This document shows, piece after piece, positions 8,105 to 10,123 of a DNA stretch of 15,227 bases; within the stretch, counting starts at the first letter, position 1; the number at the start of each line of letters is the position of its first letter. The stretch is from a virus (Duplodnaviria > Heunggongvirae > Uroviricota > Caudoviricetes). Made by a program: the position numbers and the translations under genes. Under the pieces are notes generated by a model that was given only the letters and a program-made list of their open reading frames with translations, did no database searches and was not told where the DNA came from. The stretch spans positions 1 through 15,227 of the IMG/VR virus record IMGVR_UViG_2740892422_000006. One strand, written 5' to 3'.

Positions 8105-8899
8105 GTGGATCGGTGCGGTAATTATTTACTTAAAGATGGTCGCAGTTTAGGACAAGGGAGTTTTGGCGAAGTATTTAAGGTTGATGTCTATAACTTAACC
8201 CAGACCCACATGACCACATATGCTCGCAAATACTTTTCACCTTGCCCGGACTTTGACAAGACCGCTATAAAAGAGTTGACTGATTTAAGACAGCGTTTTT
8301 TAGTTGAGATCAAAACACAATGCACTCTCAATAGAATAAACTATGATTCAATAGCGCCAATAGTTTTATTTAATACAAATGGTGATAAACCTTATTTTGT
8401 TATGGAATTGGCAGAGTGTAATTTATATGAAGCCATCCGCAATGGTATGAATTACGCGGAGAGGAAGTCTGCTGTTACTCAGATTTTAAAAGGAATTATC
8501 ACCATACATGAAAACAACTATATACATCGTGATTTAAAACCAGGAAACATACTTTATTATGCCGATGGAAAGTATAAAATATCTGATTTTGGTCTAGTAA
8601 AAGACAGAGATACCTTACGGGCCGAAATCAAAACAAAATTTAAGCCTAATCACATGGGCACAGATGGATATCGAGCGCCCGAAATACATGATAGCGGTCT
8701 TTTTTCTTTTCAAAGCGACATATTTGCAGCAGGTAAAATTATCACTGATATATATCCCACAGAAAGAAGTGAAAAATTAAAAAGATTGATTGCAAAATGT
8801 TGCGCACATTGGCCTGAAGAACGATATCAAAGCACACGGGAGTTACTGGAAGATTTTTTAAAAGTGACGGGGGAGGTAAATCATGAAGAACATAATTGA
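8105..8899 (+). CDS. Hanks-type (eukaryotic-like) Ser/Thr protein kinase, 264 aa, kinase domain only
   Basis: Gly-rich loop LGQGSFGEVFK, Lys in TYARK, catalytic loop HRDLKPGNIL, DFG (ISDFGLVK), APE (GYRAPE), subdomain IX SDIFAAGKI, conserved Arg in HWPEERY; GTG start with AAGGGGG SD; AT-rich. Confidence 0.85.
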   Translation: MDRCGNYLLKDGRSLGQGSFGEVFKVDVYNLTQTHMTTYARKYFSPCPDFDKTAIKELTDLRQRFLVEIKTQCTLNRINYDSIAPIVLFNTNGDKPYFVMELAECNLYEAIRNGMNYAERKSAVTQILKGIITIHENNYIHRDLKPGNILYYADGKYKISDFGLVKDRDTLRAEIKTKFKPNHMGTDGYRAPEIHDSGLFSFQSDIFAAGKIITDIYPTERSEKLKRLIAKCCAHWPEERYQSTRELLEDFLKVTGEVNHEEHN

Positions 8900-9599
8900 A
8901 ATGGCATGTTTTAGCCTAAAACAACCCCAAAAAAAAGAAAATGAAGACTTTTATTTACCGCCATCTTTTGATAGCGATTTTAACATTGTCTTTGCAGTAG
9001 CTGATGGGGTTGGTTCCTCTGAACATTCAATGCTTGCATCTCATGCAGCCATTCGTGGCATTAGACACACGCTAGGCACTTCCTTTTTCTCAATTGAAAG
9101 TGCATTTCATTCAGCTAAAAAAGAAATTGACAATTTAGATATTAGCACTGCAACAACCTTAACAATTGTTCAGATCAAAAAAAATGAAGTGTTAATTGGT
9201 CATTCCGGTGATTGCCGAGTATACTTCAATAAAAACAATAAACTAAATCAGTTAACCACTGATCAAACGAGATATCAAGAACTCCTTGATTCTGGTGAAC
9301 ATAAATTACGTAATTTAAGAAATCATAAAGAACGGCTATCTTCAGTCCTAACGAATGCTTTATCAAATACAACGGATTTGAATTTTGAGTTAATGTCTTT
9401 TCCGATTAGCCAGCTAATTTATAATGGCTATCTTCAACTCTATGCAATGACTGATGGTGCCTATAAGCATTGGGATGTCAGACCAAGGTTTTCTGAGAAG
9501 ACAATGCTCTCACCAACAGCTTTTGCGAGTAGTTTAAGAAAAAGGATTGAGAAAAACATAATGGATGATTACACCTTTATAGGCGTAAAAGTAACCTAA
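8883..9599 (+). CDS. PP2C-family (PPM) Ser/Thr protein phosphatase, 238 aa
   Basis: PP2C motifs FAVADGVGS, GHSGDCRVY, AMTDGAYK and C-terminal MDDYTFIGVKV; ATG with GGGGGAGGT SD; overlaps the kinase 3' end by 17 nt. Confidence 0.85.
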   Translation: MKNIIEMACFSLKQPQKKENEDFYLPPSFDSDFNIVFAVADGVGSSEHSMLASHAAIRGIRHTLGTSFFSIESAFHSAKKEIDNLDISTATTLTIVQIKKNEVLIGHSGDCRVYFNKNNKLNQLTTDQTRYQELLDSGEHKLRNLRNHKERLSSVLTNALSNTTDLNFELMSFPISQLIYNGYLQLYAMTDGAYKHWDVRPRFSEKTMLSPTAFASSLRKRIEKNIMDDYTFIGVKVT

Positions 9600-9642
9600 T
9601 TTTAGATATCCAAGATATTTACTCTAATTTAACCATAGTATT

Positions 9643-9669
9643 CCCAACCTCTTTTTATTGGGGGTTGGG
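9643..9669. terminator. Stem-loop between the phosphatase gene and convergent small ORFs (possible bidirectional terminator)
   Basis: CCCAACC-N13-GGTTGGG in an A/T-rich context. Confidence 0.3.
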
Positions 9670-9858
9670 TTCATTAAAGTCACCATTTTCTATTTCTTTC
9701 CCGTTAGAGGATATATTATTTCCAGATAAAGAAAGCAACTTCTTATGCAACTTCATATCACGCCATGCTTCCACCGCGGTAACTCTACATAGTCCATTAA
9801 CAGTTCATGCCATTCTTCAAAACTGGCGTTATATTTAGTTGAAGCAAAATCAGCCATT

Positions 9859-10032
9859 TTATTCTTCCTCTTCGTCTTTTATTTCGTGATATGAGTAATT
9901 GCAGTAGTTAAAGAAAATATCTTTTGCTTCGTCATGTATTTCATCAGGCGTCGCATCATCATCCACTTCGAATTCATCCTCGAAATCTCCACCGGCTATT
10001 CCCGTTTCAATAATTATTTTGAACTTTCGCAT
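9859..10032 (-). CDS. Small acidic protein (57 aa, MRKFKIIIETGIAGGDFEDEFEVDDDATPDEIHDEAKDIFFNYCNYSYHEIKDEEEE)
   Basis: Clean ORF, AT-rich; followed by two shorter coupled ORFs (9753-9857 and 9655-9756, overlapping ATGA). Below the track length cut-off. Confidence 0.35.
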   Translation of the reverse strand: MRKFKIIIETGIAGGDFEDEFEVDDDATPDEIHDEAKDIFFNYCNYSYHEIKDEEEE

Positions 10033-10123
10033 TTAACTACCGCCCTGCCGGACAGCCTCCTGATGTTCTGAGGGTGCCCCCCCCTCCGGTTAAGGATTAA
10101 ATTTTTAACAGTGCTAAATTTAA

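Follow-up and report, generated by a model that had tools for sequence, protein, structure and literature searches.

Introduction

Stk2 of Staphylococcus, which Depardieu reportedly described in 2016, is said to be a single-gene Ser/Thr-kinase defence system. Another single-gene Ser/Thr-kinase defence, PD-T4-6, has been described in E. coli (Vassallo 2022, PMC9519451) and, as recounted in a passage of PMC9122126 that refers to Friedman 2011, the Stk kinase of the lambdoid prophage 933W brings about abortive infection upon heterologous infection by HK97. Kinase and phosphatase are combined in KKP (PfpC-PfkB-PfkA), which occurs as modules of Pf, P2, P4 and Mu-like prophages; its two kinases act as the toxin and PfpC, a PP2C phosphatase, as the antitoxin, it protects E. 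coli against T-phages, and its trigger is T4 Gp59, which inhibits the phosphatase (Guo et al. 2024, PMC11341870). Here we analyse an AT-rich island in a 15,227-nt stretch of viral DNA (Caudoviricetes; IMG/VR record IMGVR_UViG_2740892422_000006, positions 1 to 15,227; hereafter the window, meaning this whole stretch), which is part of a Qin/Rac-like lambdoid prophage of E. coli, and report that the island holds a two-gene kinase-PP2C cassette.

The island is composite: a plus-strand kinase-PP2C cassette (7913 to about 9757) is joined to common phage DNA (about 9757-10040). Our preferred reading, to which we give a probability of roughly 0.6, is that the island is a mosaic of a self-contained cassette, most likely a phosphorylation-based, toxin/antitoxin-like anti-phage module acting by abortive infection or superinfection exclusion, and of AT-rich small early genes that belong to the phage itself. 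Judged from its sequence, the cassette fits best as a two-gene lineage, so far uncharacterised, within a known kind of system.

Results and Discussion

Base composition, junctions and rarity of the cassette

A first-pass annotation of the window had drawn an AT-rich island at 8105-10050 between GC-balanced flanks, with abundant ATA, AGA and AAA codons, and all the open reading frames (ORFs) that it named are present where it placed them. Computed GC content bears out the contrast: it is 0.360 over these positions, against 0.517 in the left flank (5165-7912) and 0.506 in the right flank (10064-12573), with z = -11.2 relative to the rest of the window (GC 0.487), and the interval lies within 0.3 points of the window minimum for 1946 nt (0.357 at 8014-9959). 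GC at third codon positions is 0.30 in the kinase gene, 0.28 in the PP2C gene and 0.35 in the DUF7167 gene, compared with 0.45-0.59 in Q, rusA, DUF968, DUF977 and the O-like gene. Codon shares in the cassette exceed those in seven core genes for each of the three codons in question (ATA, 2.8% vs 0.84%; AGA, 2.0% vs 0.77%; AAA, 6.0% vs 4.0%) and also for TTA (4.6% vs 1.5%). Likelihood change-points in GC fall at about 7870 and about 10040. The low GC of the interval first drawn is thus real, and it is the left edge that has to move: because the cassette carries its own upstream region, the compositional island starts some 200 bp to the left of 8105.

The ends of the cassette were placed by BLAST comparison with phage 689R5, the Stx phage ArgO145 and the prophage of strain 22AR0434, in which homology to the window stops at 7911/7912 and restarts at 9768. 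All three match one or both flanks but not 7913-9767, and relatives hold 0.8-1.7 kb of other DNA between the breakpoints, including ea22/eaA-like genes and a pseudogene. A four-way alignment revealed that the window is short of 16 nt relative to the other three just inside the right junction; therefore, homology on the right side truly reaches about 9757, not 9768.

Rarity also separates the two parts of the island. Kinase-PP2C DNA is present in 35 of 5,426 complete E. coli genomes (29 at 99% identity or more, 4 at about 92% and 2 at about 80%), and the cassette is missing from nearly all relatives of this prophage. The 192-bp upstream spacer (7913-8104) occurs in 34 of the same 5,426 genomes and in no phage record. 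The DUF7167 end of the island (9775-10060), by comparison, is found in 1,902/5,426 genomes and in ArgO145-type Stx phages, and the part that spans DUF7167 and the mini-ORFs is 94-96% identical in ArgO145, 689R5 and those 1,902 genomes, in each case without the kinase. The two parts also differ in orientation, the cassette being antisense to the phage early operon and opposite to cro, the O-like gene, DUF977 and DUF7167.

The whole block had at first been taken for horizontally acquired moron cargo. For the kinase and phosphatase genes this interpretation stands: their site holds other DNA in relatives, they are confined to 35 of the 5,426 genomes, they are AT-rich in every host examined and they occupy other cargo sites as well (see below), and both their absence from related phages at the same position and a GC content distinct from the surroundings are what is expected of a moron. 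It fails for the 57-aa protein and the mini-ORFs, which lie on the strand of the phage early operon and recur in the 1,902 genomes. In BLAST comparisons, related prophages did not carry the block as conserved core. We also searched the cassette ends for direct and inverted repeats (target duplications or att-like sites) and found only short AT-rich chance matches, so that transposition was set aside as the route of entry; mosaic replacement is therefore preferred. In such a replacement the 1.85-kb cassette would have displaced the variable DNA that runs from hok/sok to a small phage gene and, with it, that gene's 3' end.

The kinase and the phosphatase

The kinase, which is RefSeq WP_000373318.1 in a near-identical prophage, matches phrog_2361 at 2.6e-51 and has the features that define the Hanks-type class: the Gly-rich loop, the VAIK Lys, the alpha-C Glu, HRDLKxxN, DFG, APE, the subdomain IX Asp and the subdomain XI Arg. 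Its catalytic loop reads HRDLKPGN, which is of the Ser/Thr type, and is accompanied by a GTDGYRAPE motif. Among 26 homologues (33-83% identity), G18, G21, K42, E68, H141-R142-D143-L144, N148, D161-F162-G163, E193, D205 and R240 are fully invariant, and G16, A191 and P192 are conserved in at least 90% of the sequences. The family comprises about 84 clusters of 255-265 aa, all from Gammaproteobacteria.

The PP2C carries the metal-binding motifs of the PP2C/PPM class ((N/R)xD, DGxGG-like, GDxR, (S/T)DG and DD/DN), and residues N20, D22, D41-G42, G109-D110, R112, D191-G192 and D228-D229 are invariant in 8 orthologues (33-94% identity). The closest solved structures are those of the bacterial PP2Cs PstP and tPphA, and the match to the NCBIfam Stp1/IreP-type model, at 8.6e-19, lies below that model's cut-off. 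Sequence comparison thus indicates that both proteins, with their catalytic residues invariant, are under purifying selection. The start of the PP2C gene overlaps the kinase stop by 17 nt, which suggests translational coupling. As a side observation, the alignment of the PP2C to the 565-position phrog_5650 profile is confined to positions 273-517, which implies that certain phage proteins of this family extend some 270 positions further at the N terminus, perhaps through a fused kinase.

A run of eight A residues at 8929-8936, in PP2C codons 16-18, is a run of seven in the strains ETEC1730, ETEC1717 and ETEC1718 (ETEC, enterotoxigenic E. coli), where the PP2C is frameshifted and the kinase is intact; this could be either real inactivation or slippage, or a homopolymer error in assembly. 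The three frameshifted assemblies, along with the broken phrog_519 gene that adjoins the cassette, would suit a view of the cassette as decaying junk cargo with no present function. Nevertheless, the window and 32 of the 35 E. coli carriers have both ORFs intact, and the catalytic residues have been kept across homologues that are 33-94% identical and come from many genera, which makes decay a very unlikely explanation.

Carriers of the cassette include O157, O103, O145, O121, O45 and ETEC strains. Lambdoid prophages of such strains bear effector cargo, Ser/Thr kinases among it, and the kinase might on that ground be imagined as an effector of virulence, delivered to animal cells as are the NleH kinases encoded by prophages of enterohaemorrhagic E. 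coli. We find this scarcely credible given that the protein is a bare kinase domain devoid of an N-terminal extension for secretion, that it is always paired with a phosphatase, and that close homologues occur in Acinetobacter, Vibrio, Aeromonas and Xenorhabdus as well as in P4 satellites of ordinary E. coli.

Mobility of the pair

A PP2C gene lies directly downstream of the kinase gene (3 nt apart at most, or overlapping) in all 11 distinct contexts, which cover 21 loci. Besides the window copy and a 92% identical variant of it, the pair is located after the lysis genes in phage Flotzy, between Q and the lysis genes in Cronobacter phage phiES15, before terminase in a Xenorhabdus prophage, between psu and int in P4-like satellites, in a Vibrio element that has an integrase and Mob_Pre, on an Enterobacter chromosome beside a TacA/TacT-type pair (Pfam TacA1 plus a GNAT acetyltransferase) and on an Acinetobacter chromosome. 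Three lambdoid cargo sites are occupied in all, in addition to satellite, integrative-element and chromosomal-islet sites. The GC content of the cassette is 31-43% in 8 hosts or contexts and falls under that of both flanks in 6 of them; in the other two, from Vibrio and Acinetobacter, it falls under that of a single flank.

The strongest pointer to function is location. In 5/5 distinct places read, a variant with 80-84% identity, which the index lists in 124 blocks, sits between psu and int of P4-like satellites; this placement holds for the variant, not for the window copy. The P4 psu-int locus is an experimentally validated antiviral hotspot and a reservoir of antiviral systems (Rousset 2022, PMC9122126). 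The hotspot table in supplementary file 6 of the same paper lists Pkinase plus PP2C loci under other accessions, which were untested there (PMC9122126). A defence context is further suggested by matches of the kinase to defence-kinase models of PADLOC and, in the window, by the adjacent hok/sok locus.

The variety of these settings also bears on a different idea, namely that the pair is a prophage or host regulatory switch, instead of or besides a defence system, and would adjust lysogeny, induction or host physiology by phosphorylating a nucleoid-associated or regulatory protein reversibly. Reversible switches are classically built in this way, from a kinase and its matched phosphatase. AT-rich DNA is a typical target of H-NS-type silencing, and the cassette, being AT-rich, would itself suit such control. 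Moreover, KKP controls activation of the Pf prophage through phosphorylation of MvaU in addition to its role in defence (PMC11341870). However, the same cassette resides in elements with unlike regulatory circuits (lambdoid phages, P4 satellites, the Vibrio integrative element and the Enterobacter and Acinetobacter chromosomes), which argues against a phage-specific regulatory target, and its absence from nearly all relatives of this prophage also speaks against such a role. We consider a regulatory switch rather unlikely.

A working model for the cassette

Given the precedent of KKP and the hotspot location, we propose that the cassette follows the logic of KKP in minimal form. Because it is oriented against the repressed early-right transcription of the phage, it could be expressed in a lysogen from an otherwise repressed prophage. 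The phosphatase would then act as the antidote to a toxic kinase, holding this RD-type kinase and the proteins it acts on in the dephosphorylated state. Infection by a phage may upset the balance, for instance if the phosphatase is inhibited or titrated away or the kinase is activated, whereupon the kinase would phosphorylate host and/or phage proteins, growth would be arrested and replication of the invader would fail. The cassette is also convergent with the P_R operon, and prophage induction could silence it by transcriptional interference, which would amount to self-immunity. In its most specific form, which we put forward tentatively and at somewhat below even odds, the proposal is that the pair is a minimal two-gene phosphorylation-based abortive-infection system, experimentally undescribed and of a lineage independent of KKP, Stk2, PD-T4-6 and 933W Stk, that circulates in lambdoid prophages, P4 satellites and small integrative elements of Gammaproteobacteria.

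Several points weigh against an anti-phage role. The matches of the kinase in PADLOC (mad6, 1e-37; PD-T4-6, 1.2e-32; Stk2, 2.6e-25) are limited to the generic catalytic domain, and the PP2C matches no PADLOC model. A literature search (DUF7167; WP_000373318; kinase/PP2C/prophage/defence) found no experiment on the two-gene kinase-PP2C family, and KKP alone surfaced. If the run of seven A residues in the three ETEC assemblies is real, the kinase is non-lethal in the absence of its partner at native expression, and a strict toxin/antitoxin interpretation is weakened. The promoter and terminator of the cassette are candidates put forward from their conservation, as computational scans called neither. 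Finally, the pair points the same way as the late genes in Flotzy, phiES15 and the Xenorhabdus prophage, so that it could also be expressed in lytic growth.

This last arrangement, with the pair set amid late and lysis genes in the same orientation, would favor a scenario in which the kinase is an offensive tool that the phage employs in its own lytic growth for host takeover or counter-defence, in the manner of T7 gp0.7, while the phosphatase limits the damage. A passage in PMC13645617 has the T7 kinase disarming bacterial defences by pervasive phosphorylation. The window copy, however, is antisense to both the early and the late operons and has a promoter-like site of its own, the variant in P4 satellites occupies a hotspot that houses defence systems, the pair is found outside phages too, and the phage matches of the kinase include nothing that resembles T7-type kinases. 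An offensive role is accordingly quite improbable, and we continue to favor anti-phage defence.

Should the cassette be a defence system, one bare kinase domain and one small PP2C would represent the simplest form of kinase/phosphatase immunity logic. It would also offer a tractable model for how a phage trigger tips a phosphorylation balance, which host or phage substrates are lethal and how a prophage protects itself on induction. With this pair, the hok-to-nin variable region of Qin/Rac-like prophages emerges as a landing place for such cargo, beside hok/sok; the carriers of the pair are Shiga toxin-producing and ETEC lineages, in which Stx and other phages compete within one and the same cell. 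Failing a defence function, the locus is a clean, ordinary example of lambdoid mosaicism.

Candidate control signals

The spacer that begins at the left breakpoint contains a perfect palindrome (Table 1). In the 92% variant this palindrome reads ATGCGGGA-CT-TCCCGCAT, with changes that match on both arms; it has no U-tract on either strand, and the P4-satellite copy lacks it. Protein binding is a possible role for it. As to the candidate sigma-70 promoter, both hexamers, their spacing and the leader are retained in the 80% identical P4-satellite copy, in which the DNA further upstream is unrelated, so that similarity between the lambdoid and P4 copies begins at the promoter-like site and runs on through the leader. 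A consensus promoter scan returned fewer promoter-like sites than shuffled sequences did and none at the right place, the candidate being missed because its -10 hexamer ends in A. Downstream of the PP2C gene, the 9590-9700 RNA folds at -21.3 kcal/mol (z = -1.97). The stem of the hairpin in this segment is kept in the 92% variant, where a U-to-C change turns a G-U pair into a G-C pair. A terminator scan gave three terminator-like matches, none of them after the PP2C stop, and did not call this hairpin. A moron would be expected to bring a promoter and a terminator of its own and to be expressed from the repressed prophage; what the cassette shows in this respect is one conserved candidate for each signal.

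We also considered a 12-codon ORF, MFFQSYQSITES, at 8057-8095 as a leader peptide. It is preceded by a perfect Shine-Dalgarno (SD) sequence (AAGGAGG, from 8044) at a distance of 6 nt from its ATG and ends 9 nt before the kinase start. The P4 variant does not conserve it, and it is therefore probably no leader peptide.

The small minus-strand ORFs

Two coupled mini-ORFs had been reported to the right of the PP2C gene, at 9753-9857 and 9655-9774. They proved to be fragments of a single 58-aa phrog_519 gene, split by the cassette junction and the 16-nt deletion, and are gene debris from the acquisition event. The intact gene of ArgO145 and 689R5 begins MADFGSTKYSVSFEEWHELLMEYAELRGGSAADAEAWRDDYEAGK. 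The first ORF, of 34 aa, is the N-terminal fragment, the frame of which is broken by the deletion; the second, of 39 aa, keeps EAWRD in the original frame and then reads into unrelated cassette-side DNA. Consistent with this, the phrog_519 profile covers residues 1-26 only in the window (4.4e-6), against 58 aa in the intact ArgO145 orthologue (1e-21), and RefSeq has no gene annotated at the mini-ORF position. In strain AREA_497, which has the 92% identical cassette variant, the phrog_519 gene is disrupted too, but differently.

The 57-aa acidic protein had been called uncharacterised, which does not hold as to its family: it is classified as Pfam DUF7167 (55.3 bits vs a gathering cut-off of 24.4, over residues 2-53) and as phrog_1997 (positions 1-57 of 57). 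Its gene is part of the phage early-right operon and not of the kinase cassette. The 75 homologues, nearly all from E. coli, are at least 62% identical and make up a narrow E. coli-prophage family. An AlphaFold2 model (predicted local distance difference test score 77) has a beta-beta-alpha-beta topology, and comparing it with the PDB gave no significant match, the best being p56 at E = 0.85. The top-ranked non-significant matches are small acidic phage inhibitors (p56, T7 Gp2 and Dmd). Because these structural matches are non-significant, an anti-defence or DNA-mimic role for the modelled protein is only a guess.

Neighbouring genes and features of the prophage

The early-right and late operons of the prophage are on the minus strand, and the gene assignments listed in Table 1 agree with the annotations of the 98% identical ETEC1730 prophage and of phage 689R5. 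The hok/mok/sok locus is intact and is the immediate left neighbour of the cassette, outside it; two toxin-type modules therefore stand side by side in the variable region of the prophage. In a scan with Rfam, the cassette itself gave no match, and the only hits were sok and a sub-threshold match to isrK, an Hfq-binding small RNA, at 7450-7531 on the minus strand between hok and the next phage gene (27 bits vs a gathering score of 50; E = 0.004).

Table 1. Positions of the cassette, its candidate signals and the surrounding genes in the window
Feature	Position	Strand	Basis or remark
Cassette-specific upstream spacer	7913..8015	+	starts at left breakpoint 7911/7912
Palindrome ATGTGGGA-T-TCCCACAT	7932-7948		perfect; about 70 bp upstream of candidate kinase promoter
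Candidate sigma-70 promoter TTGCAA-17 nt-TATAAA	8016..8044	+	read from sequence; followed by conserved leader of about 55 nt and SD AAGGGGG
Hanks-type (eukaryotic-like) Ser/Thr protein kinase, 264 aa	8105..8899	+	Pfam Pkinase 1.4e-31, residues 11-215; GTG start; kinase domain only
PP2C (PPM) Ser/Thr phosphatase, 238 aa	8883..9599	+	PF13672 1.4e-10; phrog_5650 3.9e-31
10-bp GC-rich hairpin, possible cassette terminator	9643..9669	+	44 nt past PP2C stop; no clear U-tract
Remnant of 58-aa phrog_519 gene (two mini-ORFs)	9655..9857	minus	phrog_519 profile, DNA alignment, translations
DUF7167 small acidic protein, 57 aa	9859..10032	minus	PF23768 7.1e-15; phrog_1997 7.5e-31
DUF977	10538-10960	minus	small ORFs between DUF977 and DUF7167
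O-like gene	11001-12077	minus	
YdaT/cII-position gene	12143-12568	minus	
Cro	12565-12843	minus	
CI-like repressor	12887-13525	+	
hok/mok/sok type I toxin-antitoxin locus	7540-7864	minus	Pfam HOK_GEF 3e-23; Rfam sok RF01794 112.5 bits at 7690-7864
DUF968	6037-7092	minus	
RusA	5671-6036	minus	
Q	4985-5680	minus	next in transcription order: tRNA cluster, holin/lysozyme

Just downstream of Q the prophage carries a tRNA cluster (4466-4775 on the minus strand, and 3739-3820) with tRNAs for Gly(UCC), Thr(UGU) and Lys(UUU), one with a CAU anticodon and an odd 82-nt 'tRNA-Val(AAC)'. The tRNA with the CAU anticodon is Met according to ARAGORN; its orthologue is a tRNA-Ile (an ATA reader) in RefSeq. The cluster tRNAs read A-ending codons and might aid translation of AT-rich cargo. 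A second AT-rich cargo gene on the plus strand (975-1556; 39.5% GC) lies amid the lysis and terminase genes. Its product belongs to the histidine-phosphatase family (His_Phos_1, 7e-6), and the orthologue in the near-identical ETEC1730 prophage is annotated as a lipopolysaccharide core heptose(II)-phosphate phosphatase (Ais-like).

Comparison with known systems

With 933W Stk the window kinase shares residence in a lambdoid prophage, and the lifestyle and logic proposed here for the pair are the same. It differs in that Stk is reported to be a tyrosine kinase that lacks a partner phosphatase, whereas the window kinase has a Ser/Thr-type catalytic loop; a tblastn search with the latter against a phage collection that included 933W gave no match at E <= 1e-4 in 933W or other Stx phages. 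Stk2 and PD-T4-6 are, like the window kinase, eukaryotic-like Ser/Thr kinases on mobile elements, and the PADLOC models of both match it. The alignments, however, cover only model positions 16-202 of 327 (PD-T4-6) and 162-360 of 500 (Stk2), that is, the catalytic domain, and both systems are single, longer proteins that have no dedicated phosphatase, unlike the window kinase with its obligate second gene. As the matches are partial and those systems are single-gene, the cassette is neither of them.

In its setting, the cassette resembles lambdoid morons and the cargo of the P4 psu-int and P2 antiviral hotspots (PMC9122126) in being putatively autonomous, compositionally deviant and absent from sister phages at its site. 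The window site itself is another one, between hok/sok and small nin/ea-type genes of Qin/Rac-like prophages, where the alternatives seen are ea22/eaA-type and hypothetical genes.

KKP remains the nearest relative in kind. Both are prophage or satellite cargo that joins a Hanks-type Ser/Thr kinase to a PP2C, and both occur in P4-like satellites of Enterobacteria. The differences are as follows: (i) KKP has three genes and the window module two, with no second kinase in the island or in the 11 contexts sampled; (ii) PP2C comes first by the KKP search rule, whereas the order in the window is kinase and then phosphatase; (iii) PfkA-like and PfkB-like kinases have C-terminal cold-shock and FHA domains, respectively, whereas the window kinase is a bare 264 aa, in which a Pfam search found kinase-type domains only and no cold-shock (CSD) or FHA domain; and (iv) the phosphatase is about 387 aa long in KKP and 238 aa in the window. 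Sequence likeness is low, as BLASTP against a KKP from the E. coli P4 hotspot gave 22% and 29% identity over the kinase core for the two kinases and, for the PP2C, a marginal match (E = 0.009 over 42 residues). Gene number, gene order, domains and this low likeness rule out membership of KKP and, at the sequence level, mark the window pair as a separate lineage. By analogy, however, the pair probably works in a similar way to KKP.

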